Shown here: piece by piece, positions 14,368 through 40,313 of the stretch | Layout: each line of letters begins with the position of its first letter | How positions within the stretch are numbered: position 1 is the first letter of the stretch | Source: an uncultured Candidatus Saccharibacteria bacterium | Lineage (GTDB): Bacteria > Patescibacteriota > Doudnabacteria > UBA920 | Length of the DNA stretch: 64,000 bases | Reading direction: 5' to 3' | Assembly: GCA_964474825.1 (NCBI GenBank) | Contig: CAYYWQ010000001.1 | Location: 229,609 to 293,608, forward strand | The notes under the pieces: model-generated | What the model saw: only the letters and a program-made list of their open reading frames with translations | What the model was told of the DNA's origin: nothing | Databases searched by the model: none | Position numbers and translations under genes: made by a program

Positions 14368-14452
14368 GCATTTAGTAGTTAGTATATAGCAGTTAGGTTT
14401 GTTAATCCCTACCTGCTAAATGCTATTTGCTACAAGCTAAGAGCTAATACCT

Positions 14453-15136
14453 ATGAAATTAGAAATGCAGGAAAAATCCACAACAACGGCAAAGTCCACA
14501 CAAAGCTTTTTGCCTATTAGTGAAATAAAAAATGACGTGGTCGTTTTAAACAACGGCACTTTGCGCGCGATTTTGGCGGTATCCAGCACTAATTTTGACT
14601 TAAAAAGTCAGGATGAACAAAATGCCATTATTTATAATTTCCAGCGTTTTTTGAATTCTTTGGAATTTTCAGTGCAAATTTTAATGCAAAGCCGGAAAAT
14701 GGAAATTGGCACTTATTTGGAAAAGCTAAAAGGGATTGCCGAAAAACAGACAAATGAGCTGCTTAGGGTCCAGACTTTGGAATATGTGGAATTTATTAGC
14801 CGGCTTATAGAAAACGCCAGTATTATGAACAAGAATTTTTACGTTATTGTCCCGTTAGACGAAAGTATAACGCCCCAGGCGGCCGGATTTTTTAGCCGGA
14901 TTTTTGGGGGAGGTAAAACCAAGGAATTAAAGCAAAAAGTTGAAAATTTTGAAAAACTTAAAGAGAAGCTCGATAACCGGATTTCTGCGGTTAGTTCCAA
15001 TCTTTCCAGTATTGGCCTGCAATCTTCGCCGCTTAAAACAGAGGCTATTATTCAGCTCTATTACAACTCCTACAATTTTGACGCCGCTCCAACACTAGAC
15101 CCGAATAAATTAAAAGAAATGAAAATAGCGCAGTAA
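14453..15136 (+). CDS. VirB4/TrbE N-terminal domain-like protein (possible detached N-terminal part of VirB4)
   Basis: LNNGTLRAILAVSSTNFDLKSQDEQNAIIYNFQRFLNSLEFSVQI matches the CagE/TrbE/VirB4 N-terminal pattern; in frame with the next ORF, separated only by TAA TAA TTT. Confidence 0.45.
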   Translation: MKLEMQEKSTTTAKSTQSFLPISEIKNDVVVLNNGTLRAILAVSSTNFDLKSQDEQNAIIYNFQRFLNSLEFSVQILMQSRKMEIGTYLEKLKGIAEKQTNELLRVQTLEYVEFISRLIENASIMNKNFYVIVPLDESITPQAAGFFSRIFGGGKTKELKQKVENFEKLKEKLDNRISAVSSNLSSIGLQSSPLKTEAIIQLYYNSYNFDAAPTLDPNKLKEMKIAQ

Positions 15137-15142
15137 TAATTT

Positions 15143-26045: not shown

Positions 26046-27251
26046 TTAGTTCCCGCAGGAGTTGTTAGGGCATTGAGGCGTGGGATCTTCTATAATTAGC
26101 CCGCCCACTGCGGCGTTAGGGTCTGGAAGTATTATTAAAGTCTGAGGGCTGCTGCTTTCTAAGGTTGAAGAGGCGGAAGGTTTTTTGTCTGTTGCTACAG
26201 TGGAGGTGGAGCTAACGGCCACAGAGGTTCCTTTGACTTCCCCGTCCAAATTCGTCTGGGCCGCTAAGCTGACTTGGCGAAGTAAAAAGCCGGTATCGGT
26301 CTTGTCTCCCAAAATAGTTACGTTTTGGTTAATTTTTAAGTCACGGGAATTTATTACAGCATCCTCGTCGTTTTTGATTAAAGTAGCCTTGGTAAATGTA
26401 TAAATTTGTCCGTTAACAGTAAGAGTGTTGTAAGTTAACTGGGTGATTTTACCTGAAATAACCACGGCCGAAGGGTTGGAATTTAAAGCCGCAAGCGCTT
26501 GGTCGTTGCTTGCCGCGCCTAAATACTCGTCTATAACAGCTAACTTGGTCGCATTTTCTTTAGCTGCTGAAAGCACGGTTTTGTCTACGCTTGAGTCTTT
26601 ATTGGTTTCTAGTTTTTTAAGCAATGCCTGTTGTTTGGAAGTAATGGTTTGCAGGGAAGCAATGAGCGGATGGTCTTGGTTTATAGCATGTGTTTCTGTT
26701 TCGTTGGCTTTGTTTAAGGCGTTAATGGTATTTTGGGTTTCCGCGCCGAGTTCATTTAAAGCCGCTACTTGTTTTTCTGGATCATTTTGGGAATTTTCCA
26801 AAGCCGCCTGCACGTCGTCAATGCGTTTTTGGGCAATGGCGATTTGTAGGTTTATTTTTTCCTGCGGACTGGATGCTAACTGTAGTTGAGCATGTTCCGC
26901 GGCCTTTTTAAGACTAAAAAAAGTATCACCCGGCCTGCTGGAAGATGCCGCGAAACCGGCGCTTACTCCGGCTATTATAAAAATAAAAACAGAAGCGCCC
27001 ACCACAGCCAAGCGGGAAAAACGTATCCAATGGAGGAAAAGCGATTTGGCCGGGGCAAAAACATATTTTCTTTGCATGGCCGGTTCCGGTACTGCTTTTT
27101 TTGGTAAAGTCTTAAGCAGGTTTGCTATTTGGAGCAGGGGACTGAGTTCTTTGGAATGCAGCGGCCACTTTGAAAGTATTTCGGCCTGGGATTTTCCCTG
27201 GTCGAGTTGCTCAACAGCTTTATTTAATATTTCGTCAAAATTTTCGTTCAT
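26046..27251 (-). CDS. putative anti-sigma factor (cytoplasmic N-domain, single TM, extracytoplasmic coiled-coil domain)
   Basis: overlaps and immediately follows ECF sigma gene; single TM AVVGASVFIFIIAGVSAGFAA. Confidence 0.4.
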   Translation of the reverse strand: MNENFDEILNKAVEQLDQGKSQAEILSKWPLHSKELSPLLQIANLLKTLPKKAVPEPAMQRKYVFAPAKSLFLHWIRFSRLAVVGASVFIFIIAGVSAGFAASSSRPGDTFFSLKKAAEHAQLQLASSPQEKINLQIAIAQKRIDDVQAALENSQNDPEKQVAALNELGAETQNTINALNKANETETHAINQDHPLIASLQTITSKQQALLKKLETNKDSSVDKTVLSAAKENATKLAVIDEYLGAASNDQALAALNSNPSAVVISGKITQLTYNTLTVNGQIYTFTKATLIKNDEDAVINSRDLKINQNVTILGDKTDTGFLLRQVSLAAQTNLDGEVKGTSVAVSSTSTVATDKKPSASSTLESSSPQTLIILPDPNAAVGGLIIEDPTPQCPNNSCGN

Positions 27252-27834
27252 TGTCTAAATGTTGTTTAACTAGTTCTTGCAGTTTAGTTATGGCGCGGTG
27301 TTGTATGACTCTTATTGCGCCTTCGGTTTTATGCAATAATTCTGAGATTGTTGCGTTTTCTAAATCTTCAATAAATTTTAATTTAACAACCATTTGCTGT
27401 TCGCTGGTTAGTTGTTTTAACAGCTTAAGCATTAATTGCTGGTCTTGTTTTAAATCCACCGACTCAACAATATTAGATTCGTATTCCAGGGTGTTTTCGA
27501 TTTCATCTAAAGCAACATCTACCTTTTTTTCACGGTAGTAATCTATAACCATGTTTCGCGCTATCTGGTAAAGCCAGCCTTCAAACGAATCGCCGCCTCT
27601 GGCAGAGCCAATTTTTCCAAAAACTTTTAAAAACACTTCTTCCGCCAAGTCTTCGGCCACTTGCTTGTGGCTTACGCGGAAGTAAATAAAACGGTAAATT
27701 TTTTGGAAATAAAGATTGTAAATTTGCCCAAAAGCCACTTGGTCGCCGCTCTTGGCCTTGTCAAAAACCTCATCAGAAACCCTTGAATTGGGTTCTTTTA
27801 AAGCGCTAAATATAAAGACGGAATTTAAGTCCAT
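27235..27834 (-). CDS. ECF-type RNA polymerase sigma factor (sigma-70 family)
   Basis: region 2 EEVFLKVFGKI...WLYQIARNMVIDYYR and region 4 helix-turn-helix ISELLHKTEGAIRVIQHRAITKL. Confidence 0.8.
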   Translation of the reverse strand: MDLNSVFIFSALKEPNSRVSDEVFDKAKSGDQVAFGQIYNLYFQKIYRFIYFRVSHKQVAEDLAEEVFLKVFGKIGSARGGDSFEGWLYQIARNMVIDYYREKKVDVALDEIENTLEYESNIVESVDLKQDQQLMLKLLKQLTSEQQMVVKLKFIEDLENATISELLHKTEGAIRVIQHRAITKLQELVKQHLDNERKF

Positions 27835-28090
27835 TTGTTACAAAGAAAAGGTTTATTAAACAATAAAACGGCAAATTGTCAAAATTGATTAAAATATCGC
27901 CGCAAAGACGGCGATATTATTCTAACATATTTTAAATAATTCTAAGTGATTTTTCTAAAGGTAAAGCTTTTAAACTATCTGCCCCTCGACTTCGCTCGGG
28001 ACACTCGACTCGCTTCAATTATAGGATGGTTGAGGCCTTTTAAGGGCCGAAACCACGAGCAAGCTTTGATGTTAGTCAAAGCGAGTCGAG

Positions 28091-28182
28091 TGGCGGAGAG
28101 GGGGGGATTCGAACCCCCGAAAGGTTTTGACACCTTTACCGGTTTAGCAAACCAGCGCACTAGGCCTCTATGCGACCTCTCC
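28091..28182 (-). tRNA. tRNA-Ser (anticodon GCT), long variable arm, CCA encoded
   Basis: GGAGAGGTCGCATAGAGGCCTAGTGCG-CTGGT-TTGCTAA-ACCGG...extra arm...GGGGGTTCGAATCCCCCCCTCTCCGCCA. Confidence 0.85.
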
Positions 28183-28381
28183 GGGTGAATGTAATATTTA
28201 AGAATTGCTTTGTCATTTTAACAAAGTTTGGAATTTCTGACAATGCTCCTTTGTTTGAAATAAATCACCCCGCGAAGCCTACACATGCTTTGTGTAAACT
28301 TCGCGGGGCTGTCGTTTTGCGTTAACGATAACGTTGCCTGCCTAGCCGGCAGGGAGTATGCGATTAACGTACGTCGGAGGA

Positions 28382-29623
28382 CTAGACCGAGTAGGTCCGG
28401 CCGCGGTGCTGTCCGAGAAGGATTTGCACCAGCCGGTGGGCGATCAGTTCGTGGAGCGTGAGCAGTTCACGGTTGGCCGCGGTAACGGCTTCGGCATCGT
28501 GCGGATCGGTAACGCCGGCGCCGCCGGCCTTCAGGGCGTCGGTGGCTTCCTTGATGATCGGGTCAGAGATGACTTCGCCTGCCATCTCCCATAGCGTGAT
28601 GAAGCGGTCCACGGCGCTCGGAAAGCTGACCTTGAAGACGCCGTAGTTGCTGGTGGTGCGTGGCGGTTTGAAATCGAGGTTGAACGGGCCGTTGTAGCCG
28701 TGGCTGCGCAGCAGCACCAGCACGTTCAGCCAGTCGAGCGGATTCACCAGCCCTACCGCGATATCCACATCGTGCTTCAGGCGGTAGCCGTCGTTGATGT
28801 CGAAGTGCCACAGCTTGCCGCACAGGAGTGCGCGAGCCAGCGATGCCCGGGGCGCGGCGCCCCACATCAACTCATGCAGGTACTCGGGGTTGAGCCCTAC
28901 CATCTCCGGATGCGTCAGCAGGCCTGAGGAAATGAAGGCCAGCATCGCGTCGCTGGTCGGAAGCAGGATCTCGGCCTGCGGTTCGAACGGCTTGGCCTCC
29001 ATACAGTGCTTCAGGGTGGGGTTGCCCTTTTCCTTTGCAATCTGGATATCGGCCTCGCAGGCGTGGTTCAGGGCGTCGGCGTACCAGCGAAGGGTCTGTG
29101 TCTCGTCGATCGCGCCCTGGACGTAGTAGCCGAGGGAACCGGGCCAGTAGACGGCGAACTGCGCGCCGAGCTCGTGCCCGATGTGAACCGTATTGGCCAG
29201 CCGGAACTTAGCGTACTCCCTTACATCTGGAGCTTCCGCCGCCGGACTGCCGGCGAACACCGCGTGATAGAACGTGTCCGTGGTGACCATCGAGCACTTG
29301 ACGTCGTGCTTCTTGAGGCATGTCTTGATGTGCTCAATCGCCATCCACTGCCACTCTTTTCCCAGGTGCTCGGTGGGGATAACGTCCGTGTCATGAGTGG
29401 TCCAGTAGCCGATTCCGATTTCGCCGAAATTGCGGATAGCCTCCTCAAATCCCACGGGTCCGCGGGTGGGGGCGTGGAATAGGGCGTCGCCTTCGTAAGC
29501 AGCGGCCCATTGGGGCCCGGAGATAAAGTATTTCCGGCGCGTTTCGGGGGAATAACCACCCCCGCACGCTTCCATGAGCCGATTAATCAGGGATTGCTGT
29601 TCGTTCACAGGGACTGGTTGCAT
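28382..29623 (-). CDS. xylA: xylose isomerase, class I (actinobacterial/Thermus type), in ~62% GC island
   Basis: long collinear similarity to class-I XylA: FHDTDVIP, AIEPKP-like EAKPFEPQ, ILLPT, GLNPE, HFDINDG, exact DFKPPRT; codon GC3 very high against AT-rich flanks. Confidence 0.85.
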   Translation of the reverse strand: MQPVPVNEQQSLINRLMEACGGGYSPETRRKYFISGPQWAAAYEGDALFHAPTRGPVGFEEAIRNFGEIGIGYWTTHDTDVIPTEHLGKEWQWMAIEHIKTCLKKHDVKCSMVTTDTFYHAVFAGSPAAEAPDVREYAKFRLANTVHIGHELGAQFAVYWPGSLGYYVQGAIDETQTLRWYADALNHACEADIQIAKEKGNPTLKHCMEAKPFEPQAEILLPTSDAMLAFISSGLLTHPEMVGLNPEYLHELMWGAAPRASLARALLCGKLWHFDINDGYRLKHDVDIAVGLVNPLDWLNVLVLLRSHGYNGPFNLDFKPPRTTSNYGVFKVSFPSAVDRFITLWEMAGEVISDPIIKEATDALKAGGAGVTDPHDAEAVTAANRELLTLHELIAHRLVQILLGQHRGRTYSV

Positions 29624-29815
29624 TTTCTTTTTCTTTCTCCTAAATGAAAAACCTCCTTTGAGCCTATATATCCGGCCTTCAAAAGAGGTTCGGCCAAGAA
29701 AACAATCTTGGCGGATTTATTAGTTTACAATTAAAAAAGCCTTTTGTCAAAGGCCAAAATTGGTTCAAATTAATAAAACTCATACTTAAATACTTGAGAA
29801 TGTAAGGATGAGTTT

Positions 29816-30580
29816 TTAATCCCTTGCAATGGTAAGGCACCAGACGCTTTTGGCACCGTTGCGCTTTAAGACTTTTGCGGCTTCCAGTAAAGTTGATCCT
29901 GTCGTGGTTACGTCGTCCACTAAAATAAGATTTTGATTATGGACATCAGCATCTTTTTTTAAAGAAAAGGCGTTAGCCACGTTTTTTATGCGTTGGTCTT
30001 TTTTTAAATCTTTTTGGGTTTTAGTAACCTTGTTTCTCGTAAGCGCATCAAGCATACCCAGATTCAATTCTTTGCTAAGTGTGTGGCATAGAATTTCCGC
30101 TTGGTTAAAACCGCGCCAGCGTTTGCGGCGGGGGTGGAGGGGGAGGGGAATTAATATAGGCTTCTGATTATTATCATGGTTGAATAAAAAAGAATAGTCA
30201 GCTTCAATTTTTTTGGCCAAAAGATTCCCCAAGACTTCAAAAGTTCCTGGAAGGAAATGGTACTTTCCCTTAATAACTATTTCCGCCACATTTTCATCGC
30301 GATAATTTAATACGGAAATTAAACCGTCCGCCGTATGCGGGGTTAGGCAACCCGGATGTGTAAAGCCGGAAATAGAAGGCTTTTGGCAAATAATGCAGTG
30401 TTGGTAATCCAGCCTTGCCAAAAGTGCTAAGCAATCGGTGCAAATAAAACTACCCTCCTTTTCGCACACAAGGCAGCGAATAGGAAAAATCGTGTCTAAA
30501 ACAAAAGTTTTAACATCTTTAGAAAAAGGTTTTATAAAAGTTTTATACATTAATTTAATTTTAACATAAAAACCCCGCAA
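29816..30580 (-). CDS. comF: ComF-family protein (competence protein F, PRTase fold)
   Basis: N-terminal Cys4 zinc finger (CLVCE...CTDC / CIICQ), PRTase motif LILVDDVTTTGSTL. Confidence 0.75.
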   Translation of the reverse strand: MRGFYVKIKLMYKTFIKPFSKDVKTFVLDTIFPIRCLVCEKEGSFICTDCLALLARLDYQHCIICQKPSISGFTHPGCLTPHTADGLISVLNYRDENVAEIVIKGKYHFLPGTFEVLGNLLAKKIEADYSFLFNHDNNQKPILIPLPLHPRRKRWRGFNQAEILCHTLSKELNLGMLDALTRNKVTKTQKDLKKDQRIKNVANAFSLKKDADVHNQNLILVDDVTTTGSTLLEAAKVLKRNGAKSVWCLTIARD

Positions 30581-30606
30581 GAGGCGGGGTTTAAATATTT
30601 ATAAGC

Positions 30607-33150
30607 TTAAGCCAGAACGGGGATGGGTTCTTGTTTTTGTATGGTAAAGACCACCTGGTCTTTTTTAACATCTGCGGTAATTTTGGCGCCTTCGCTGGTT
30701 TTGCCGGAAATTATTTTTTCTGCCAACGGGTCCTCCAGTAATTGCTGAATGTTCCTGCGGACAAAACGCGCGCCTTGGGCGGGGTCAAAACTTTTTTCGG
30801 AAATAAACTTTACAACGGCCGGGGAAATTTTAAGGCTGACGTTTTGCTCTAGCAGGCGGTTTTGCAAAAGCGCTATTTGCAATTGGGTAATTTTTTGTAG
30901 TTGGGTAAAGCCCAGGGGTTTGTATACAATAATTTTGTCTATGCGGTTTAAGAATTCTGGCCTGAACTGCTGTTTTAGGTTGTCTGTAACGCCGTCCTTA
31001 ATGCGTAAATAGTCAGCTTCCAGCTTTTCCTGTTTGGTTTGGGATTCGTTTTCACGTTCCGCAAAACCAATTTTAACCGCAGCAGTGGTCAGTTCCTGCA
31101 TGCCCAGGTTAGAAGTCATAATAATTACAGTATTGCGGAAGTTAACTTTTTTGCCTGCCGCGTCTGTAAGTTGACCGTCTTCTAAAATTTGCAGCAAAAT
31201 GTTAAACACGTCCGGGTTGGCTTTTTCTATTTCATCAAAAAGTACAACGCAATATGGCTTGCGGCGCACAGCTTCGGTTAAACGGCCGCCTTCTTCGTAT
31301 CCTACATAGCCGGCGGGAGCGCCAATTAAACGCGCTACATTGTGGCGTTCCATAAACTCGCTCATGTCCACGCGAATTAGCGCGTCCTCGTCTTCAAATA
31401 CTTCCGCGGCTAAGACTTTAGCAGTCTCGGTTTTGCCGACTCCTGTTGGTCCTAAAAATATGAATGATCCCAAAGGTCTGGCCGGGTCTGTAATCCCGGC
31501 GCGGCTCCTGCGTATGGATTTAGCAATTTCTGAAACAGCTTCGTCTTGTCCGACAATCCGACTTTTTAAGATTTTTTCCAAATTAGTTAAGCGCGACATT
31601 TCTGTCTTGGCTAAACGGGCCAAAGGAATTTTGGTCATCATAGAAACAGTGTGGGCAATGTCTTCCGCGCCAATAACATGCTTGGGTGTTTGCTGCTCCA
31701 GTGCCAGACTCCGGGACAGTTCAGTTTTTTGTCTTAGCAGTTTTTCTTCTTGCGCGCGCAAATGAAGGGCAGTTGTAAAATCCTGGGCCAAAACAGCTTT
31801 GGTTTTTTCTTCTTCCAACGCTGCTAAATCGCTCTCTATTTTTTTAGTGGCTCTTAGCAGCTTGCTGTTGCTGCTTATTGTTCTTAAAAACGCAGCGGTT
31901 TCGTCTATCAAGTCTACAGCTTTGTCAGGCAAAAATCGGTCTTGAATGTAACGGTCAGACAAATCTACCGCGGCTTTTACTGCTTCTTCTGTAATAGTAA
32001 CGTTATGATGTTTTTCGTAATTAGGACGCAGACCACGCAAAATCTCCACAGCTTCTTCTTTGCTGGGTTCTTCCACTAAAATTGGCTGAAAACGCCTTTC
32101 CAGTGCCGCGTCTTTTTCAATGTGCTGTTTGTATTCGGTTAAGGTGGTGGCGCCAATGGCCCGCAGTTCGCCGCGCGCCAGTGCCGGTTTTAAAATATTA
32201 GCAGCATCCAAAGAGCCTGTGGTAGCGCCGGCGCCAACCATGGTGTGCAGCTCGTCTATAAATAGAATAATGTTTTTGTTTTCTTTAACCTCGTCAATAA
32301 TCTGTTTTAAACGGTTTTCAAATTCACCGCGGAACATGGAGCCGGCTACAATTAAAGCCAAGTCTAAACTTAATATTTTCTTGTCGAGAAGGGAGTCGGG
32401 GACTTCGCGGTTGGCCATGGCTAAGGCCAAGCCTTCTACAATTGCGGTTTTACCTACACCGGCTTCGCCAATTAAAATTGGATTATTTTTTGTGCGACGG
32501 TTTAGAATAGAAACCAAGCGTTCAATTTCATTTTTGCGTCCGACAACTGGGTCTACCAAGCCGTCTTTAGCCTTTTTGGTTAGGTCGGTAGTAAAGTAGT
32601 CCAGCAAATTCTGTTTTTTGCTGTCTTTTTGTGGGCTGTGGTTGTGCATATCGGGTTGCTGCATTCCGGGTTCTCCGGCTGGAACTTCGGGGAATTTAGA
32701 AATATTTTCAAATACTGCCTGGAGGTTTTGCTCCAGTTCCGCAATATCTACACCTAACTTGTTTAAAATTACTTTGGCTTTGTTGCCCTGGACCGAAAGC
32801 ATGCCGGACAAAAAATGTTCGGTGCCAATAAACTGGTAGCCATATTGGCTGGCCACAATGGCAGATTTTTCTATAACCAGCTTTAAGTTTTCGGAAAGTA
32901 TGGGTTTCCAAACCGGGGAAGTGTTGTTGCTGTTAACTAAAATAAGTTCCTGTTTAATTATTTCGGGAGTTAATTTGGTCTTAGTTAAAATTTCCGCGGC
33001 AAACGAACTCTTTTCGGAAATTACTCCATATAAAAGATGCTCCGTGCCAATGTGGTCGTGTTTTAATTCCTCGGAAACCAGCTGCGCCATAATAAGGGCG
33101 TTTTTGGCTCTGGAGGAAAGTCTCTCTAGAATGTAAGTGAAATTTGTCAT
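30607..33150 (-). CDS. clpC: Clp ATPase ClpC-type (two Clp_N repeats, two AAA+ modules, short UVR-like linker)
   Basis: GEAGVGKTAIVEGLA (AAA1 Walker A), GPTGVGKTETAKVLA (AAA2), two N-terminal Clp_N repeats, 847 aa. Confidence 0.85.
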   Translation of the reverse strand: MTNFTYILERLSSRAKNALIMAQLVSEELKHDHIGTEHLLYGVISEKSSFAAEILTKTKLTPEIIKQELILVNSNNTSPVWKPILSENLKLVIEKSAIVASQYGYQFIGTEHFLSGMLSVQGNKAKVILNKLGVDIAELEQNLQAVFENISKFPEVPAGEPGMQQPDMHNHSPQKDSKKQNLLDYFTTDLTKKAKDGLVDPVVGRKNEIERLVSILNRRTKNNPILIGEAGVGKTAIVEGLALAMANREVPDSLLDKKILSLDLALIVAGSMFRGEFENRLKQIIDEVKENKNIILFIDELHTMVGAGATTGSLDAANILKPALARGELRAIGATTLTEYKQHIEKDAALERRFQPILVEEPSKEEAVEILRGLRPNYEKHHNVTITEEAVKAAVDLSDRYIQDRFLPDKAVDLIDETAAFLRTISSNSKLLRATKKIESDLAALEEEKTKAVLAQDFTTALHLRAQEEKLLRQKTELSRSLALEQQTPKHVIGAEDIAHTVSMMTKIPLARLAKTEMSRLTNLEKILKSRIVGQDEAVSEIAKSIRRSRAGITDPARPLGSFIFLGPTGVGKTETAKVLAAEVFEDEDALIRVDMSEFMERHNVARLIGAPAGYVGYEEGGRLTEAVRRKPYCVVLFDEIEKANPDVFNILLQILEDGQLTDAAGKKVNFRNTVIIMTSNLGMQELTTAAVKIGFAERENESQTKQEKLEADYLRIKDGVTDNLKQQFRPEFLNRIDKIIVYKPLGFTQLQKITQLQIALLQNRLLEQNVSLKISPAVVKFISEKSFDPAQGARFVRRNIQQLLEDPLAEKIISGKTSEGAKITADVKKDQVVFTIQKQEPIPVLA

Positions 33151-33258
33151 ATAGGTTTATACGATGTTTGGTGTCAAAAGGTTACAAAGAGTATAATTAA
33201 ATTATCTCATATATGTTGATTATATCAAAGTTATCACTCATGTCAAGGGAGTGATAAC

Positions 33259-33353
33259 TACAGAAGGCTACGGAAAAATGCACTACAGATGCCTACAGAA
33301 CCTGACATTTTTTCTGTAGGCATCTGTAGTGGGCCTTCTCTATAGTTCTGTAG
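33259..33353. promoter_or_regulatory. symmetric array of six CTACAG half-sites including 20-bp perfect inverted repeat (candidate operator) between clpC and recX
   Basis: cactacagatgcctacagaa (33281-33300) / ttctgtaggcatctgtagtg (33312-33331) perfect IR with 11-nt spacer; outer ctacagaa (33260) / ttctgtag (33346). Confidence 0.5.
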
Positions 33354-33357
33354 TTTT

Positions 33358-33876
33358 ATGTGGAAACCCCAAAGCAAAACCAAAGAACCTGACAATATAG
33401 AAAAAGCATACGAGTATGCCGTGTTTTTGCTGTCCCTGAAGCTACGAACCATTGGGGAAGTTTTAACTAAGATGAAAGGCAGGGGATACGGCGAGGCCGT
33501 TATTTCAGAAATTATTGAGAGATTAAAAAGCCAGCACTATTTGGACGACCAAAGATACGCGGAAATTTATTTGGAAAACTTAAAAATTTATAAAACCTTT
33601 GGCTATTACGGCATTAAGAAAATGTTTATGGAGAAAAAGTTGCCACAGGAGCTTATTGAAAATATTTTAACCGAAGGACTTAGTCTTTCTGAAGAAACAA
33701 AAATTGCCAAAAGATTTTTGCAAAAACAAGGGATTATGCCTAAAGAAAAATCAGATAGTGATGAAATGCAATATCGAACCTTTGATGAAGAAGCCTCAAA
33801 AGCCAAACAAAAACTCGCCCAAAAATTAAAGGCGAGAGGGTTTAGGGGAGACGTAATAAGTAAGTTATTGTTTTAG
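33358..33876 (+). CDS. recX: RecX-family regulatory protein
   Basis: AYEYAVFLLSLKLRTIGEVLTKMKG...LDDQRYAEIYLE three-helix repeat pattern of RecX. Confidence 0.65.
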   Translation: MWKPQSKTKEPDNIEKAYEYAVFLLSLKLRTIGEVLTKMKGRGYGEAVISEIIERLKSQHYLDDQRYAEIYLENLKIYKTFGYYGIKKMFMEKKLPQELIENILTEGLSLSEETKIAKRFLQKQGIMPKEKSDSDEMQYRTFDEEASKAKQKLAQKLKARGFRGDVISKLLF

Positions 33877-33913
33877 AATCTGCGTAATCAATACTTATCC
33901 GCGTATCAGCGGT

Positions 33914-34888
33914 CTATAAATTCATCTCTCGAAGTCTTTTAACCCTGTCCTGTATTGGCGGGTGGGTGTTAAACATTTTGGCAAACCAGCCTTGGCCGCT
34001 TTGCTTTTTTGAGTCAGCATTCATAACACTGTCCTCATGAAAGGGGTTGACTATATACAAATGCGCGGTGGCTTTGTTGGCGGCTTCTAAGGGTTCGCGG
34101 TCGGTGGAAATTTTTTCTAGGGCCCGTGCCAAGCCTTCTGGGTAGCGCGTTAACAGAGCGCCAGAAGCGTCTGCCAAATATTCTCGTTGGCGGGAAACCG
34201 CCAACTTTATTAAAGTTGCAATAATAGGGGAGAGAATAGCTAAAATAATTCCGGCAATGACTAAAATTGCTTGCAGTTGTCCGCCGCCTTCGCTGTTGCT
34301 TTTTTTGCGTCCGCCAAAAAAGCTGGCACGCAAAAACCAGTCGGCCAATAAAGTAATTGTTCCAACCAGGACTACCACTAAAGTCATAACGCGAATATCG
34401 TAATTTCCAATATGCGAAAGTTCGTGGGCAATAACGCCTTCCAGCTCGCTTTTTTCCAGTTTTTGCAATATGCCAGTGGTAACACAAACCACGGCGTGCT
34501 GTGGGTCGCGCCCTGTGGCAAAGGCGTTAGGTGCTGTGTCTTCTATAATATAGATTCTTGGAGTAGGCAGACCGGCGGCAATGCATAAATTTTCCACAAT
34601 TCTATAGAGTTCCTGGTTCGACTGCCTGTCTATTTGTTTTGCCTGGGAAAGCGCCAGCGTTATGGAGTCGGAAAAGTAATAAGAAATTAAAGATGAAAAA
34701 ACAGAAAAACCTACGGCAAAATATAAAATTTCGGGAGTGTTGTAGGCCTGCGAAAAAACAAAACCAAGCAGGGAAATAATGACCAAAAAGCTGAATATTA
34801 AAATCCAGCTTTCGCGTTTATTCTTGTTTATGAGATCGTAGGTTAGCATGGGAATAGTAAGTAGTAAGTAGCTGGTAGTATGTAGCAA
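33914..34888 (-). CDS. htpX: HtpX-like M48 zinc metalloprotease
   Basis: HELSHIGNYD (HExxH), four TM helices, C-terminal NPFHEDS... typical of HtpX. Confidence 0.85.
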   Translation of the reverse strand: MLHTTSYLLLTIPMLTYDLINKNKRESWILIFSFLVIISLLGFVFSQAYNTPEILYFAVGFSVFSSLISYYFSDSITLALSQAKQIDRQSNQELYRIVENLCIAAGLPTPRIYIIEDTAPNAFATGRDPQHAVVCVTTGILQKLEKSELEGVIAHELSHIGNYDIRVMTLVVVLVGTITLLADWFLRASFFGGRKKSNSEGGGQLQAILVIAGIILAILSPIIATLIKLAVSRQREYLADASGALLTRYPEGLARALEKISTDREPLEAANKATAHLYIVNPFHEDSVMNADSKKQSGQGWFAKMFNTHPPIQDRVKRLREMNL

Positions 34889-34931
34889 AACCTTTTGGCT
34901 ACTAACTACTCACTACTAGCTACACGCTAGA

Positions 34932-35477
34932 CTAGAACTGAACTTTGACCGCTTGTCCCTCTACGCCTTTTTCGTCTATATCAAAGAAGTCGCGTTTGGT
35001 AAAACCAAACATTGAGGCGAATAGGTTAGTGGGGAAGACTTGAAGTTTGGTGTTGTAGTCGCGGACATTGCCGTTGTAAAAGCGGCGTGCGGCCTGGATT
35101 TTGTCTTCCGTGTCCGTTAAGTCGCTTTGCATTTGCATAAAGTTTTGGTTGCTCTTTAAATCCGGGTAAGCTTCGGAGACCGCAAACAAACTTTTTAAAG
35201 CACCGGATAGCATGTTTTCGTCTTTCAGTTTTTCCTGCATTGTGCCCGCGCCCATTGCCGCGGTTCTGGCTTTGGTAACATTTTCCAAAACAGAAGATTC
35301 TTGTTTGGCGTAGCCTTTTACGGTTTCCACCAAATTGGGAATGAGGTCGTATCTTCTTTTTAGTTGTACCTCTATGTCCGACCAGGCTTCGTCTACCCGG
35401 TTTTTGGCGCTTACCAGGGAGTTATAGAGGAAGGCCAATATAATTACAATGGCCAGAATTATCCAAATTGCTATCAT
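34932..35477 (-). CDS. lemA: LemA-family protein
   Basis: N-terminal TM + LYNSLVSAKNRVDEAWSDIEVQLKRRYDLIPNLV LemA signature; LemA-HtpX pairing. Confidence 0.8.
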   Translation of the reverse strand: MIAIWIILAIVIILAFLYNSLVSAKNRVDEAWSDIEVQLKRRYDLIPNLVETVKGYAKQESSVLENVTKARTAAMGAGTMQEKLKDENMLSGALKSLFAVSEAYPDLKSNQNFMQMQSDLTDTEDKIQAARRFYNGNVRDYNTKLQVFPTNLFASMFGFTKRDFFDIDEKGVEGQAVKVQF

Positions 35478-35680
35478 TTTATTATTCCTTTTATTTCATC
35501 CCGGCTGCTTTTATGGCCTTTCGGGAATGATTAAGATTGTATATTTATTATAGCACTTTTTAGTCTAAGTGGGTCAATAGTAAAATTGGCTTGACATGAT
35601 TTTAAACATTTGTTAAACTACAAATACCGCTTTAGTTAACTAAAGCGGTCAAAGTAAAGTTATAGTGTTAGGAATTTTTT

Positions 35681-36007
35681 ATGGCAGTAACTTGGGACAA
35701 TAAAAAAACTGAAAATTTGCTGCAGGCAGTTTTGTTGCTTGAAAGCTTGGAAGAAGCCAAGCGTTTTTTTCGCGACCTTTTAACAGAAGCCGAGCTGGAA
35801 GAATTTGGTAACCGCTGGCTGGCCGCGCAAATGCTTACGGCCAAAGAGTCTTACACAATAATTCGGGGCAAAACAGGGCTTTCTACAACTACCATTGCGC
35901 GTATTTCTAAATGGCTGCAAAAAGGACGCGGCGGCTACAAGTTGATTTTAAAAAGATTAGGCCAGCATCATACCAACTCCATTCCTATTGGGAAAGGGTT
36001 GCGTTGA
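35681..36007 (+). CDS. TrpR-like / YerC-YecD family DNA-binding protein
   Basis: LTEAELEEFGNRWLAAQML...ESYTIIRGKTGLSTTTIARISKWL helix-turn-helix pattern of TrpR-related family. Confidence 0.5.
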   Translation: MAVTWDNKKTENLLQAVLLLESLEEAKRFFRDLLTEAELEEFGNRWLAAQMLTAKESYTIIRGKTGLSTTTIARISKWLQKGRGGYKLILKRLGQHHTNSIPIGKGLR

Positions 36008-36149
36008 TAATGTTATGGTCCTTATGCTTTAATGCACTAGTGCAGTAATGCAAAGGGCCGAATAAATTTATCCACTTTGCCCGTTCCCAAGAGGAATGGG
36101 TTTTTTGTTTTTCTTGGGACAAATCCAATTACAACTAGGAGAAGGGAAA

Positions 36150-37217
36150 ATGAAAGTTTTATGGCCCAACTTTAAAAAAGGCAATGGACTCATTGTTGCA
36201 ATAGCGCAAGATGCCCGGACTAAAGAAATTCTTATGCAGGGCTTTGCCAGCGAAGAGGCGTTTCGTCTGGCGTTGGCTACCGGCTTCGCGACTTATTTCA
36301 GCAGATCCCGGAATGAGCTTTGGATGAAAGGAGAAACAACCGGCAATAGGCTTAAGCTTGTTGGTCCGCCACTGATTGATTGCGACGGCGACTCAATCAT
36401 TTATTTGGTGGAGCCTCAAGGGCCTCCTTGCCACACGAACCAGAGAAGCTGTTTCTATCGCAATGTGCTTGAAACGGAAAAGGCTTCGTTCTCATCCCCG
36501 GATGAGACGTTGCCAATATTGGAATGTGAAGTCAGCCTGAAAAGGAGCATAGAAATGAGTAAAAGAAAGTTGCAGATTGGAGTAATGGGTAGCGCGTCAG
36601 ACTTGGAGTATAGCGAAGAAGTCGCGCGTTTAGCCGAAGAAGTGGGCAAAGAAGTCGCGCTGGCCGGATGTGTTCTGGTCTTTGGTGCCGAGAAGGACTA
36701 CGACTCTCTTTCGACTGCCGCGGGACGCGGAGCGAGGAGCGTTGGGGGTCTTACCGCGGGAGTGACTTATGGCAAAGGCATAGACGTTTTTGAACAAGCC
36801 GATGTCATTATTACCTGCGGTGCGGAACGCGGCGGACCAAGGGAATCGGCGCTTGTGCTTTCCTGCGATGCCATAATTTGCATTTCAGGCGGCAGCGGCA
36901 CGCTCACGGAAATGCTGGTGGCCTACCAAGCCAATATCCCAATTGTTGCCCTGGTGGGCACCGGCGGCTGGAGCGATAAAATGGCGGGTTCTTATTTTGA
37001 CAAACGCGAGCGCGTCAAAGTAGAGCCGGCAGCCACTGCGAAGGAAGCGGTGGATATTGCCCGGAGGTTGGTTCATCAAAACCAATGTAAACACGAAAAC
37101 GCAGAACAGGTAGAGTTCCTGCGCCGGAGTCAGGTTGGAATGCATCAATTGAGTGAAGTATGGGAAGTTCGCTGCCCTGATTGCGGCAAGCAATATCAGG
37201 ATGCCTTTATAGGGTAG
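36150..37217 (+). CDS. hisI: phosphoribosyl-AMP cyclohydrolase (HisI) domain fused in frame to LOG/TIGR00725-like Rossmann domain; higher-GC island
   Basis: HisI: LIVAIAQD...FSRSRNELWMKGETTGN...DCDGDSIIYLVEPQGPPCHT..SCF; LOG-like: IGVMGSAS...ISGGSGTLTEM; internal strong RBS aaaggag before MSKRKLQ but no stop between domains. Confidence 0.7.
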   Translation: MKVLWPNFKKGNGLIVAIAQDARTKEILMQGFASEEAFRLALATGFATYFSRSRNELWMKGETTGNRLKLVGPPLIDCDGDSIIYLVEPQGPPCHTNQRSCFYRNVLETEKASFSSPDETLPILECEVSLKRSIEMSKRKLQIGVMGSASDLEYSEEVARLAEEVGKEVALAGCVLVFGAEKDYDSLSTAAGRGARSVGGLTAGVTYGKGIDVFEQADVIITCGAERGGPRESALVLSCDAIICISGGSGTLTEMLVAYQANIPIVALVGTGGWSDKMAGSYFDKRERVKVEPAATAKEAVDIARRLVHQNQCKHENAEQVEFLRRSQVGMHQLSEVWEVRCPDCGKQYQDAFIG

Positions 37218-37224
37218 CGAGAGA

Positions 37225-37503
37225 ATGAGCAAAGCAAGGCTCGTGTGGAAAGGCGGGAAAAACGGCGGGCGCTGGATGCGCCCGCTGGGACCGCCGTTTT
37301 GGGACGGTGGCACATGTAAATTTGCCGGGGAAGTTTTGGGGTATACCAGCTTGCCCGGCACGGCAAAAGTTGAAGGAGGTCGGGTGCTTTTTAAAGGGCA
37401 CCTAGATGTTGGGTTTCAAATATTATGTCCATTTGACGAAGTAGCGGCAGTCTTTAATGAAGACGGCAGGCAAATTTATCACTTGGAGCCGGCGGACGAA
37501 TAG
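37225..37503 (+). CDS. hypothetical small protein within higher-GC island
   Basis: ORF only; Gly-rich; no family recognised. Confidence 0.2.
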   Translation: MSKARLVWKGGKNGGRWMRPLGPPFWDGGTCKFAGEVLGYTSLPGTAKVEGGRVLFKGHLDVGFQILCPFDEVAAVFNEDGRQIYHLEPADE

Positions 37504-37614
37504 TCTGCCGGTTTTTATTTTTGTCGAAATTGTGTTATAATTAATTGGTAAAAATATCGAACAGAAATAAAAATTTCATCTTTCGTTTAAAAGTCTGGCG
37601 AAGGAAATCTTGTT

Positions 37615-39972
37615 ATGGGATTTGTAGAAAAATTAAAAGACGGGGTCAATAGGTTTATTGACCAAATGGAAATTAACGATCTGGATTATAGGGTCCAGTT
37701 GGTTTTGCGCGAGCGCGAGGAGTTAAAAACCTGGACAGACCAGGAATTAAAATTATCCACACTCGCTTTTAAAGACGATTTAAAAAAAGGAAAACGTTTG
37801 GACAGTTTACTTGTGCAGGCTTTTGCGGTTGTTAACGAAGCGGCGCGGCGGGTGTACAAAAAATCTCCTTTTCCGGTGCAAATCTTAGCAGGGATGGTTA
37901 TTCATAAAGGAAGAGTGGTGGAAATGAAGGCCGGTGAAGGCAAGACTTTAATGGTCACTATGCCTGTGTATTTAAACGCACTTTTGGGAAAAGGCGTGCA
38001 TCTCGTAACCACGAACGATTATTTAGCCGAACGCGACGCCACACAAATGGGCAAGCTCTACAATTTTTTAGGGCTAACCGTCGCTCACGTAACTTCGGAA
38101 ATGAAGCCGGACGAACACCGGAAAGCTTATGCAGCGGATATAACTTATGTTTCTAACCAAGAAATCGGGTTTGATTATTTGAGAGATAATTTAGTTTTCC
38201 GTAAAGCCGACCGCGTTCTTAGGCAAGAGCATCCTTTATTTTTTGGAATTGTAGACGAAATTGACAGCATTTTAATAGACGAGTCGCGGACCCCTTTAAT
38301 TATTGCCGAGGCGGTAAAAGAGGAAAGGAATTTTTACGACCAGTTTACCGAAATTGTTACTAAGTTAGAGGAAGAAAAAGATTATGTGGTAGATTACGTC
38401 CATAAAACAGTGGCAATGACAGACGCGGGCTTAAACAATGTGGAGAATCTTTTGGGCAGCAAAGTTTTTGACCAAGACAACCCAATGTACGTGTTTTATT
38501 TGGACGTATGCTTGCGGGCCAAGGTTTTGTTTGAAAAAGACCGGGACTATATTATAACTTCCGAGGGAGTGGAAATTGTAGACGAATTTACCGGCCGCGT
38601 CCTGCCCGGCCGCAGGTTTACAGACGGCGTTCACCAGGCCATTGAGGCCAAGGAACAAATTAAAATAAAAGACTCCGACCGCACTTCCGCTGCCATTACT
38701 TTCCAGAATTTTTTTCCGCTTTATGAAAAGCTTTCAGGCATGAGCGGCACGGTCATGCGTTCGCGCGACGAGTTTAACCGGGTTTATAAACTGGACGTAA
38801 TCCGCGTGCCTACCAACCGTCCGGTTGTCCGCGTTGATCATAATAATTTGTTTTTCAAAACCCAAAAAGGTAAATTTTTGGGATTGGTAAAAAAAATAAA
38901 ACAAATCCATGGGCGGGGACAGCCTTTGCTAATTGGCGCTCGTAACGTGGAAACCGCTCATGTGGTGGCAAAAATTTTAGAAGCGGAAAATTTACCCTAC
39001 CAATTACTTACGGCAGCGGACCACAAGGCCGAAGCAGAAAAAGTTGAACGCGGCGGGCAGTCGGGGATGATCACCGTAGCCACAAATATGGCGGGGCGGG
39101 GGACAGACATTTTGCTTGGTCAGGGCGTGGAGCAAAGCGGAGGGCTTTTTGTGCTTGGAACTGAAAGGCATGAATCAAGAAGGATCGATGATCAGCTTAT
39201 TGGCCGCTCAGGCCGCCAGGGTGAACCCGGCGAGTCGCAGTTCTTAATTAGTATGGAAGACGAAATTATGCAGTTGTTCGGCAGCGAAAGCATTATTGAC
39301 GCCATGGAGCAGCTAGATATGGCCGAAGACGAATACATTTCGGGTAAAGGGCTGGACGAAGCTTTTGAACGGGCCCAAACTTTTGTGGATAGCCGTAATT
39401 TTGACTCGCGTATTTATTTATACAAATATGACAGCGTAACCAGTTTCCAGCGCAAGGCTATTTATAGTTTGCGGAATTCGCTTTTGGAAAATGCATCCGG
39501 CTTTGAGGATTTTTTGCAGACTGCCGTGGCTTCAGAAATTGAAAGGATTTTAGCTATTGGCAACGCAAAATTAATAACCGCGGAATTTTTAAAAATATTT
39601 TTTGTTGAAGTGGACGAACAAGAATTGGGAGGATTGCTTAAATCGCCAAATAAAAAAGGCGAGGGAATAGACCTTATAAAAAATCGCCTCGGCGGCTATT
39701 TGCTCGACAGGGCTAAAAAAATCCAGGCCCAAGGGCAGGATTTTATAACAGCCCAAAGCCTGGTCCTGCAAATAATAGACAACAACTGGAGCAATCAACT
39801 GGAATTAATGGACGTGCTAAAAGAGGAGGCGTCGCTTTTTTCCTACGCCTCGCAAGATCCGCTTATAGATTATATTTTGGAAGCCAATAAACTCTTTGAC
39901 CACATGCAGCAGGACATTAAGACCCAATTGGTTAAAGCAATTTTTATTTATTTGAACCAGCATGGGCTGTAA
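37615..39972 (+). CDS. secA: preprotein translocase ATPase SecA
   Basis: MKAGEGKTLMVTMPVYLNALLGKGVHLVTTNDYLAERDA (Walker A/DEAD motor), 785 aa. Confidence 0.9.
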   Translation: MGFVEKLKDGVNRFIDQMEINDLDYRVQLVLREREELKTWTDQELKLSTLAFKDDLKKGKRLDSLLVQAFAVVNEAARRVYKKSPFPVQILAGMVIHKGRVVEMKAGEGKTLMVTMPVYLNALLGKGVHLVTTNDYLAERDATQMGKLYNFLGLTVAHVTSEMKPDEHRKAYAADITYVSNQEIGFDYLRDNLVFRKADRVLRQEHPLFFGIVDEIDSILIDESRTPLIIAEAVKEERNFYDQFTEIVTKLEEEKDYVVDYVHKTVAMTDAGLNNVENLLGSKVFDQDNPMYVFYLDVCLRAKVLFEKDRDYIITSEGVEIVDEFTGRVLPGRRFTDGVHQAIEAKEQIKIKDSDRTSAAITFQNFFPLYEKLSGMSGTVMRSRDEFNRVYKLDVIRVPTNRPVVRVDHNNLFFKTQKGKFLGLVKKIKQIHGRGQPLLIGARNVETAHVVAKILEAENLPYQLLTAADHKAEAEKVERGGQSGMITVATNMAGRGTDILLGQGVEQSGGLFVLGTERHESRRIDDQLIGRSGRQGEPGESQFLISMEDEIMQLFGSESIIDAMEQLDMAEDEYISGKGLDEAFERAQTFVDSRNFDSRIYLYKYDSVTSFQRKAIYSLRNSLLENASGFEDFLQTAVASEIERILAIGNAKLITAEFLKIFFVEVDEQELGGLLKSPNKKGEGIDLIKNRLGGYLLDRAKKIQAQGQDFITAQSLVLQIIDNNWSNQLELMDVLKEEASLFSYASQDPLIDYILEANKLFDHMQQDIKTQLVKAIFIYLNQHGL

Positions 39973-40010
39973 CGCACGGAAGCGGGGGACTACACAAACC
40001 TATATAACTT

Positions 40011-40019
40011 TGGTATAAT
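40011..40019 (+). promoter_or_regulatory. extended -10 promoter (TGGTATAAT) placing TSS at or next to the gatC ATG (leaderless)
   Basis: tggtataat ends 6 nt before ATG 40026; no SD sequence possible. Confidence 0.35.
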
Positions 40020-40025
40020 TTGGTC

Positions 40026-40307
40026 ATGTTGACCACGGAAGAAGTCAAAAAAATCGCGCTTTTGGCGCGAATTGAATTAACAGAAGCCGAGGTGGAAAAG
40101 TTCCGTAAGGACCTTTCCACTGTTTTAGATTACGTAGACGAGTTAAAAAAAGTAAATGTAGAAGGCTTGGAAGAAGTGTCGCAAGTGACCGGATTGGTTA
40201 ACGTGCAAAGGGATGACAAGCCTGTAGTTGCAAGCAACCGCGAAGAAATATTTTCTCAAGCCCCAGAAATGAAAGATGGGTTTTATAAAGTGAAATCGAT
40301 TCTTTAG
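40026..40307 (+). CDS. gatC: Asp/Glu-tRNA amidotransferase subunit C
   Basis: MLTTEEVKKIALLARIELTEAEVEKF typical GatC N-terminus. Confidence 0.8.
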   Translation: MLTTEEVKKIALLARIELTEAEVEKFRKDLSTVLDYVDELKKVNVEGLEEVSQVTGLVNVQRDDKPVVASNREEIFSQAPEMKDGFYKVKSIL

Positions 40308-40313
40308 CTAAAT

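Follow-up and report, generated by a model that had tools for sequence, protein, structure and literature searches.

We propose that a single gene was recently transferred from the Acidobacteriota, from a lineage like the Bryobacterales or Terriglobia, into the chromosome of a member of Candidatus Doudnabacteria, where it lies in the spacer between comF and tRNA-Ser(GCT). We consider this explanation likely. The gene is at 28382..29623 of the window (the whole stretch of DNA that we analyzed, 64 kb in length), and it encodes a protein of 413 amino acids with an ATG start and a match to PF01261. We will call it the isomerase-like gene. This gene and the neighboring genes, signals, and hairpins described below are all on the minus strand. 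Three criteria for horizontal acquisition point the same way: the composition of the gene is atypical, the syntenic site is empty in relatives, and in a tree its product is nested within another phylum.

The exact protein is found on a single contig at NCBI (1,211,450 bp). The best matches of the ClpC protein are from Patescibacteria/Ca. Doudnabacteria, which places the host. Related genomes have 41-49% GC, and the background in this host is about 43%. Across the 54 other ORFs in the window, GC content at third codon positions (GC3) has a mean of 0.428, a standard deviation of 0.052, and a maximum of 0.538. The isomerase-like ORF has 61.7% GC and 79.5% GC3 (z = 7.0), and it is the top outlier for codon usage among the ORFs in the window. 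An earlier note on this DNA had described a GC-rich foreign gene in a reduced, low-GC genome, and these values bear that out, as native genes (42.8 ± 5.2% GC3) are not similar to it. The same note had placed a switch in composition at the start codon, and we see one: in 60-nt windows across the ATG, GC goes from 0.52-0.57 to 0.37-0.42. The 192 nt upstream of the ORF (29624-29815) are AT-rich and native-like, again as claimed, with 32% GC and with an AGGAG ribosome-binding site that can be read directly in the sequence (29637..29641, 13 nt 5' of the ATG). The span given previously, 28190-29640, does contain the ORF, and it also takes in the ribosome-binding site and the 3' UTR.

The donor clade could be identified by homology and by phylogeny, as had been anticipated, and it belongs to the Acidobacteriota (Bryobacterales/Terriglobia). 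The isomerase-like protein is 75-89% identical over its full length (residues 1-413) to the members of an acidobacterial family of about 412 amino acids from Bryobacteraceae, Ca. Solibacter, and Terriglobia, and its sequence is typical of that family. The best 120 protein matches are 79-84% identical, and those with names are from Bryobacteraceae, Ca. Solibacter, or Acidobacteriota. The exact donor is not among the sampled sequences: the closest homolog (P0121) is 89% identical as a protein and is not among the metagenome loci; the nearest match at the nucleotide level among the sampled donors is about 79%. Among GTDB representative genomes, 80/80 homologous loci are from Acidobacteriota, and 80/80 homologous loci from metagenomes have 53-66% GC. 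In a midpoint-rooted neighbor-joining tree, the window protein lies eight nodes deep inside the acidobacterial sequences. The family is at home in genomes unlike this one: its acidobacterial background has 53-68% GC, as against about 43% in this Patescibacteria background. The median GC and GC3 of 68 acidobacterial homologs are 0.618 and 0.763. The isomerase-like gene equals them, with no detectable drift towards the host, so the transfer is recent.

These results revise the assignment in the earlier note, which had described the protein as an actinobacterial or Thermus-type XylA. It is only 27-30% identical to class I xylose isomerases of those types, and against the TIGR02631 model (xylA_Arthro) it scores 172.9 bits, as compared to an equivalog cutoff of 447. 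(Models for class II score lower still.) The "identical DFKPPRT block" that had been taken as a sign of XylA is present (LDFKPPRT, residues 316-323), but it reflects a Y318F substitution away from DYKPPRT, which is the consensus in at least 90% of the acidobacterial family. At otherwise invariant columns, the window copy has 2 private substitutions, as compared to 0-3 in other members.

In the donors, the gene does not have a fixed context. Across 68 donor loci there is no conserved neighbor, and the commonest neighboring family is found in 11/68. The earlier note considered a lone xylA to be unexpected, but in the donors, too, the gene stands by itself. (The Fur-catalase neighbors in donor loci L001-L004 represent one species-level arrangement only.) We inspected 12 donor loci more closely. 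Several of these have an upstream motif, CTATCATGGC...GGAGA, and a DUF2905 gene is frequent downstream; both are missing from the window. In NCBI's annotation pipeline (PGAP) the homologs go by the name "TIM barrel protein", and IMG annotates them as xylose isomerase. We found no characterized member of this family in the literature.

The insertion site is flanked by native genes. Upstream is a comF-like gene (29816..30580), which by Pfam has a phosphoribosyltransferase domain and a double zinc ribbon. Downstream is tRNA-Ser(GCT) (28091..28182, identified by ARAGORN and Rfam), whose 5' end is towards the inserted gene, and past the tRNA is a gene for a sigma-70-family factor (27235..27834, by Pfam). 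Three sequencing runs also yielded Logan contigs that encode this exact sigma factor. The synteny of clpC and comF is common to the window and to five related loci (L086 to L090). Two of these, L088 and L089 (GCA_964532425.1 and a Logan contig), have the empty site: tRNA-Ser(GCT) comes 140 nt after comF, without a change of orientation. The intergenic alignments with relatives are too divergent to place the exact breakpoints of the insertion. Similarity to the sampled donors stops exactly at the ends of the coding sequence, so our estimate of the transferred extent is based on composition alone: about 1.25-1.36 kb, comprising the coding sequence and perhaps a 119-nt 3' UTR (28263..28381). By composition and folding, this UTR has 54% GC and two hairpins, and the tRNA and GC-rich hairpins on the 3' side of the gene are as the earlier note reported. 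The origin of the UTR is uncertain. It was possibly transferred together with the gene, and it has no similarity to the DNA downstream of any of the sampled donor homologs. Between the UTR and the tRNA, at 28183-28262, GC drops to 29%.

No FGGY kinase (xylB) or sugar transporter was identified by Pfam among the 57 ORFs in the window, about 12 of which have no Pfam match at all, which agrees with the earlier note's statement that neither is nearby. We also note a second high-GC ORF, at 43789-44397, which encodes a PEP-CTERM protein. PEP-CTERM proteins are typical of Gram-negative bacteria. Searches for homologs of this ORF found no close relatives, and the matches carried almost no taxonomy, so it cannot be demonstrated that it shares a donor with the isomerase-like gene.

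Judging from sequence and predicted structure, the product is an intact aldose-ketose isomerase of the xylose isomerase type. The homology to class I xylose isomerases that the earlier note had recognized holds: at E < 1e-3, the only sequence matches in PDB are chains that are named as xylose or glucose isomerases, and class I enzymes match at E of about 1e-42. In an AlphaFold model (pLDDT 76, pTM 0.79), the protein has the TIM barrel and the C-terminal helical arm, without the N-terminal insert of class II, and the best matches listed by Foldseek against PDB were all class I xylose/glucose isomerases (50/50, TM 0.69-0.77). The protein shares its fold and length class (about 390 amino acids) with the class I enzymes (such as PDB 1clk, 1oad, 8yud, and 1bxb) and is collinear with them over residues 28-365; residues 1-27 form an N-terminal extension, about 27 residues long, that is specific to the family. 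It also shares their two-metal ligands, their catalytic His/Asp pair and lysines, and their aromatic sugar pocket. The equivalents of the metal ligands E181, E217, H220, D245, D255, D257, and D287 of class I are E209, E247, H250, D275, D285, D287, and D317. The catalytic residues H54/D57, K183, and K289 correspond to H77/D80, K211, and K319, and the aromatic residues W39, F49, F118, and W160 of the pocket are conserved. The metal, catalytic, and pocket residues of xylose isomerase are invariant across 44 members of the family. Around these residues, some motifs differ: the window protein has MEAKPFEP instead of [LI]EPKPxxP, THDTD instead of [FL]HDxD, and WPGSLG instead of WGGREG. We take the PROSITE signatures for xylose isomerase to be [LI]-E-P-K-P-x(2)-P and [FL]-H-D-x-D-[LIV]-x-[PD]-x-[GDE]. 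Compared to these patterns, MEAKPFEP has two mismatches and THDTDVIPTE has one, so the protein does not match either signature, but the catalytic positions are retained. We would expect the enzyme to be a TIM barrel that binds two divalent metals and acts by a hydride shift, most likely converting D-xylose to D-xylulose and/or D-glucose to D-fructose.

An AT-rich promoter of the native type probably drives the gene as a single transcription unit, with translation from the AGGAG site. The candidate promoter is sigma-70-like (TTGACA-17-TAAACT, 29722..29750) and lies in AT-rich native-like DNA; a consensus scan gave 10/12 matches. A terminator-like hairpin and T-run are predicted 3' of comF (29738..29755). 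The transcript of the isomerase-like gene probably ends at the gene's own strong hairpin, which resembles an intrinsic terminator (28267..28309; a 19-bp stem, then GATTTATTTC; fold z = -5.9). This would be ahead of the predicted promoter for tRNA-Ser, a promoter-like site in AT-rich native DNA (TTGTCA-17-(TG)TAAAAT, 28215..28243). The promoter and terminator of the isomerase-like gene are predictions from consensus matches only. A search of the UTRs around the gene against Rfam found nothing except the tRNA.

A very sharp boundary in composition might arise if an acidobacterial read or contig fragment was misjoined into the Doudnabacteria contig during assembly or binning, and metagenomes of soil and peat are rich in acidobacterial homologs. 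A chimera was a concern in the earlier note as well. We think that it is very improbable, because a contig from an independent de Bruijn assembly (Logan contig SRR14271365_20691, here L085; 11,522 bp) is identical to 29305-40826 of the window (100% identity) and extends from the native genes across the 5' junction and 318 nt into the foreign gene. This contig ends inside the gene, at 29305, and the full-length product is missing from the Logan assemblies: look-ups of the exact isomerase-like protein, of P0001, and of a guessed partial product (residues 97-413) gave no contig. With queries that included the sigma factor and comF, we found no Logan contig across the 3' junction, between the gene and the tRNA; these queries led either back to L085, with its end at 29305, or to contigs that break off beyond the tRNA, at 28007 or 27947. 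The independent support is thus for the 5' junction. Nevertheless, an artefact would require two chimeric joints within one 140-nt spacer, with exactly one ORF between them, and that ORF would also have to fall in frame after a ribosome-binding site of the native type and a predicted promoter. Furthermore, the acidobacterial DNA that has been sampled reaches a nucleotide identity of about 79% at most. Alternatively, a genomic island, an integrative element, or an integron cassette that targets the tRNA might have delivered it, as the gene adjoins tRNA-Ser(GCT), has hairpins 3' of the ORF, and lies in an interval between comF and the tRNA that varies among three related genomes. The insert is also flanked by a weak, imperfect direct repeat of 16 nt (29660-29645 and 28253-28238, with 13/16 matches), but chance repeats of this size are common (29 families in 2 kb). 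There are 199 nt between the gene and the 5' end of the tRNA, so that the gene is upstream of the tRNA, on its promoter side and not at its 3' end; there is no duplicated fragment of the tRNA and no att repeat around the insert; and by Pfam, no integrase, transposase, or recombinase is among the flanking genes. This is therefore not a classical tRNA-targeted island, and the earlier note's view of the site as an integration hotspot does not hold; we consider delivery by such an element to be very improbable. We dropped the idea of an integron cassette because there is no integrase and because inspection of the 3' UTR by eye did not reveal attC core sites (RYYYAAC...GTTRRRY). We favor the uptake of foreign DNA and illegitimate recombination as the most likely route of entry.

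Two other alternatives accept the transfer and concern what the gene does. The family could consist of isomerases or epimerases from the xylose isomerase superfamily that act on another substrate, so that "xylA" would be a mis-annotation for the entire acidobacterial family. The score far below the TIGR02631 cutoff, PGAP's choice of name, the family-specific N-terminal extension, and the replacement of WGGREG by WPGSLG would all fit with this, and neither xylB nor genes for xylose transport or regulation are linked to the gene in the 64-kb window or conserved beside it in the 68 donor loci. On the other hand, the protein retains all of the metal ligands and the equivalents of the class I pocket (W16, F26', H54, T90/T91, F94, W137, E186, K183, and K289), its only sequence matches in PDB at E < 1e-3 are chains named as xylose or glucose isomerases, and IMG's label is xylose isomerase. 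We view another substrate as somewhat unlikely. Alternatively, the gene might be a recent neutral passenger that has no useful expression and will be lost, with its partner enzymes missing from the host. There has been little time for selection, given that the composition has not drifted towards the host; the window has no xylB or transporter; and only one genome is known to carry the gene. However, the ORF is intact, it encodes all of the catalytic residues, and it does not have an excess of private substitutions. Its leader is AT-rich and carries both a ribosome-binding site and a promoter-like site, and it has a predicted terminator of its own. Also, the GC3 of the first 69 codons is below that of 98% of the donor homologs, which is weak evidence that the 5' end has been adjusted. 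Overall, we doubt that the gene is just a passenger, and we prefer the view that a recently transferred isomerase gene may be expressed and may benefit its new host.

As an inter-phylum transfer, this case is tidy, well bounded, and very recent: the donor clade can be identified, and a relative has the empty site. Cases of this kind can reveal how organisms of the Candidate Phyla Radiation acquire metabolism, and they may hint at which organisms they associate with. The latter would matter because, to our knowledge, the hosts of Doudnabacteria are not known. It is conceivable, but in our view improbable, that the unaltered acidobacterial gene is the trace of a physical association: a Doudnabacterium in peat or soil that lives on Bryobacterales, by attachment or by feeding, and uses its competence machinery to import their DNA. 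The high-GC PEP-CTERM insert at 43789-44397 may belong to this trace as well. A real association would make this gene the first genomic indication of which lineage hosts Doudnabacteria, and it would suggest that a bacterium of the Candidate Phyla Radiation is gaining access to its host's plant-derived pentoses. We found no description in the literature of a transfer between this donor and this recipient (Acidobacteriota to Doudnabacteria), and no literature on xylose isomerase in the Candidate Phyla Radiation or Doudnabacteria or on the acidobacterial family. The analysis also draws attention to an acidobacterial family of very large size, a distant relation of class I xylose isomerase, whose members commonly carry the annotation xylose isomerase yet fall under NCBI's curated cutoff.

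Among known systems, tRNA-associated genomic islands likewise show anomalous composition beside a tRNA, at a locus that varies between relatives. They differ from this locus in that the insert here is a single gene on the 5' side of the tRNA, without an integrase and without duplication of an att site. The transfer of metabolic genes between phyla is well known as a phenomenon, and lateral transfers into genomes of the Candidate Phyla Radiation have been recognized for RuBisCO and other genes, along with host-derived genes in Saccharibacteria. Here, too, an otherwise streamlined genome contains one metabolic gene that comes from an unrelated phylum, so we regard this case as clean and not as unusual. 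Where it differs from those transfers is that its composition has not drifted, which makes the event unusually recent and easy to read.

The strongest codon-usage outlier in the window is the isomerase-like ORF (28382-29623, minus strand; 413 amino acids, with an ATG start). Its GC content is 61.7% and its GC3 is 79.5%, while the window averages 43.3% GC and the GC3 of the 54 other ORFs is 0.428 ± 0.052 (maximum 0.538), which puts this ORF 7 standard deviations off. The 192 nt on its 5' side (29624-29815) are 32% GC; across the ATG, GC falls from 0.52-0.57 to 0.37-0.42 in 60-nt windows. The 119 nt directly 3' of the stop codon (28263-28381) are 54% GC, and the 80 nt after that (28183-28262), which adjoin tRNA-Ser(GCT) (28091-28182, minus strand), are 29% GC. 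The 5' end of the tRNA faces the ORF, 199 nt from the ORF's 3' end. The earlier note's observation of a GC-rich ORF beside tRNA-Ser in low-GC DNA is confirmed, and its interpretation is supported in part.

Flanking the insertion are recG, genes for a sigma factor and a DUF5667 protein, comF, clpC, recX, htpX, and lemA. The best named relatives of ClpC (75-87% identity) are from the Patescibacteria group or Candidatus Doudnabacteria, a single NCBI contig of 1,211,450 bp bears both the exact isomerase-like protein and the exact ClpC, and related contigs are 41-49% GC. The genome is a reduced one of the Candidate Phyla Radiation, in line with the earlier suggestion of a reduced genome. By Pfam content, the 57 ORFs of the window include housekeeping genes, a PrgI/VirB4-like secretion cluster, and cell-shape genes. 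The PrgI-family and VirB4/TraG-type ATPase genes (13927-16987, plus strand) have native composition and form a cluster resembling type IV secretion or conjugation systems.

The insert might be an assembly chimera, but this would require two false joints, both within the same short spacer and enclosing exactly one ORF, and we consider it very improbable. Logan contig SRR14271365_20691 (11,522 bp), assembled independently from the reads of a public run, is 100% identical to 29305-40826. It covers clpC, comF, the AT-rich spacer, and then 318 nt of the GC-rich gene, and so crosses the 5' junction. The sigma-factor region of the host was found in three sequencing runs. At the other junction, Logan contigs from the tRNA side end at 28007 or 27947, before the gene's 3' end, and we found no Logan contig with the remainder of the gene and no run with the full-length product. 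SRR14271365_20691 itself ends inside the gene, at 29305, which could reflect branching of the assembly graph toward acidobacterial homologs, a drop in coverage, or strain heterogeneity.

The 120 best database matches to the protein are 79-84% identical, and the named ones are from Bryobacteraceae, Ca. Solibacter, or Acidobacteriota (annotated as "TIM barrel protein" in NCBI and "xylose isomerase" in IMG). A JGI protein (P0121) is 89% identical. All 80 of the GTDB species-representative loci listed are from Acidobacteriota (Bryobacterales, Terriglobia, Solibacteraceae; 75-82% identity). The 80 metagenome loci listed all have 53-66% GC, with no second low-GC context for the homolog among them. 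A neighbour-joining tree (83 sequences, midpoint-rooted) nests the window protein eight nodes deep, with P0121 as its sister, and the next clade out holds Bryobacteraceae and Bryobacterales genomes from peat and fen metagenomes. The homologs' taxonomy and this nesting show that the donor was acidobacterial, and that the gene is not the actinobacterial or Thermus-type XylA that was first proposed. The donor clade might also indicate which organisms serve the Doudnabacterium as host, but we consider this unlikely.

The transferred gene is intact, and its composition indicates a recent transfer. Its GC (0.617) and GC3 (0.795) lie close to the medians for 68 homologs from donors (0.618 and 0.763, respectively), and there is no measurable shift toward the host's 43% GC. 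E116D and R201N are its only substitutions in columns that are otherwise invariant; other family members have 0-3, so there is no sign of decay. As a weak oddity, GC3 is 0.64 in the first 69 codons and 0.188 higher in the remainder; a drop of that size is seen in only about 2% of donor homologs. A single gene has moved into a Candidate Phyla Radiation genome with its composition unaltered. Such transfers are a known kind of event; we found no description of the Acidobacteriota-to-Doudnabacteria pairing in the literature searched.

Among the window and five loci of related Doudnabacteria-like genomes (L086-L090), the isomerase-like gene occurs in the window only. In two relatives whose ClpC is 82% identical to the window's (L088, from GCA_964532425.1, and L089, a Logan contig), a gene-free 140 nt separates comF from the tRNA-Ser(GCT) that follows it in the same orientation. 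L090 has two extra low-GC genes 3' of comF, together with a tRNA-Ser in inverted orientation (14127-15448). The interval is thus variable in this lineage and looks like a zone of genome plasticity. The contigs of L086 and L087 end just past comF and those of L088 and L089 at or just past tRNA-Ser, all within about 300 nt of comF/tRNA-Ser.

Nucleotide similarity to the sampled donors (75-79%) is confined to the CDS (28374-29627). An upstream motif just before the ATG (CTATCATGGC...GGAGA) is conserved in several of 12 inspected donor loci, and many of them have a DUF2905 gene downstream; neither is found in the window. Among donor loci L011, L019, L021, L063, L095, and L106, several have the motif, and in most a small gene for a DUF2905-like membrane protein starts 10-30 nt past the stop codon. 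The tRNA had been viewed as an integration hotspot, but the gene sits on its promoter side, which rules out classical integration at the tRNA 3' end. Pfam scans of the flanks found no integrase or transposase, and we found no duplicated tRNA-Ser segment. A 16-nt imperfect direct repeat (13/16 matches; 29660-29645 and 28253-28238) brackets the insert, although chance alone often produces repeats of this size. We suggest that the host cell took up foreign DNA, which would then have entered the comF-tRNA-Ser spacer by illegitimate or microhomology-mediated recombination.

Several expression signals are predicted on the minus strand. A terminator-like hairpin 3' of comF (29755-29738) overlaps a promoter-like TTGACA-17-TAAACT (29750-29722), and AGGAG lies 13 nt 5' of the ATG. 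Two hairpins are predicted 3' of the stop codon; a 19-bp stem followed by a T-rich tail is at 28309-28267. A promoter-like TTGTCA-17-TGnTAAAAT (28243-28215) lies 33 nt before tRNA-Ser. The DNA directly 3' of the tRNA (27960-28095, minus strand) can fold into an imperfect, roughly 120-nt-long hairpin (MFE -46 kcal/mol, z = -3.2) with no Rfam match. A perfect 14-nt pairing joins 28002-28015 to 28079-28092, with the 3' arm running into the last tRNA bases; two Logan contigs end inside the hairpin, at 28007.

Another gene in the window is probably foreign. A 202-amino-acid ORF between gatB and miaA (43789-44397, minus strand) has 58% GC and a GC3 of 0.68 (z = 4.8), and the relative L086 has just a 90-amino-acid ORF there. 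The product carries a signal peptide and, at its C-terminus, a PEP-CTERM sorting motif (PF07589) of the kind usually linked to exosortase systems in Gram-negative bacteria. Its homologs are distant (at most 47% identity); one is a PEP-CTERM protein from Fimbriimonas.

Pfam scans of the window's 57 ORFs found no FGGY kinase or sugar transporter, as the earlier note had stated for xylulokinase and transporters. It had considered a lone xylA unexpected, but no neighbouring family is conserved across 68 donor loci (the commonest is in 11 of them). The gene is normally a loner, so its solitude here is no anomaly of the transfer. In one Bryobacteraceae species (L001-L004, 8000-11240), the homolog is directly 3' of genes for a Fur-family regulator and catalase, a linkage that is not general across the 68 loci.

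Pfam places the protein only in PF01261, a broad family of "xylose isomerase-like TIM barrel" proteins. Its best PDB sequence matches are class I xylose/glucose isomerases from Streptomyces, Actinoplanes, Arthrobacter, and Thermus (E ~ 1e-42), with which residues 28-365 are collinear. Among the 50 PDB matches listed for the AlphaFold model (pLDDT 76, pTM 0.79), all are class I xylose isomerases (TM 0.69-0.77, 27-30% identity). A HMMER alignment pairs all metal ligands and catalytic residues of the Streptomyces enzyme with counterparts in the window protein: H54/D57 correspond to H77/D80, E181/K183 to E209/K211, E217/H220 to E247/H250, D245 to D275, D255/D257 to D285/D287, and D287/K289 to D317/K319. 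Counterparts also exist for W16, F26, T90/T91, F94, W137, and E186 of the pocket. All of these are invariant in 44 family members, except that T115 (the counterpart of T91) is at least 90% conserved. The DFKPPRT block that had been called identical is DYKPPRT in the family consensus; Y318F accounts for the difference and is among six positions at which the window copy differs from a family consensus of at least 90%.

Given these conserved residues, the protein very probably retains the two-metal, hydride-shift chemistry of aldose-ketose isomerases, and its substrate would be of the xylose/glucose type. The NCBIfam equivalog for class I xylose isomerase (TIGR02631) scores 172.9 bits against a cutoff of 447, which places the protein outside the curated XylA group and is further reason to set aside the actinobacterial or Thermus-type assignment; class II models match far more weakly. 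Judging by sequence, we place it fully within an acidobacterial sister family, itself uncharacterised. It resembles the class I xylose/glucose isomerases in its predicted mode of action, but it misses that family's curated sequence threshold.
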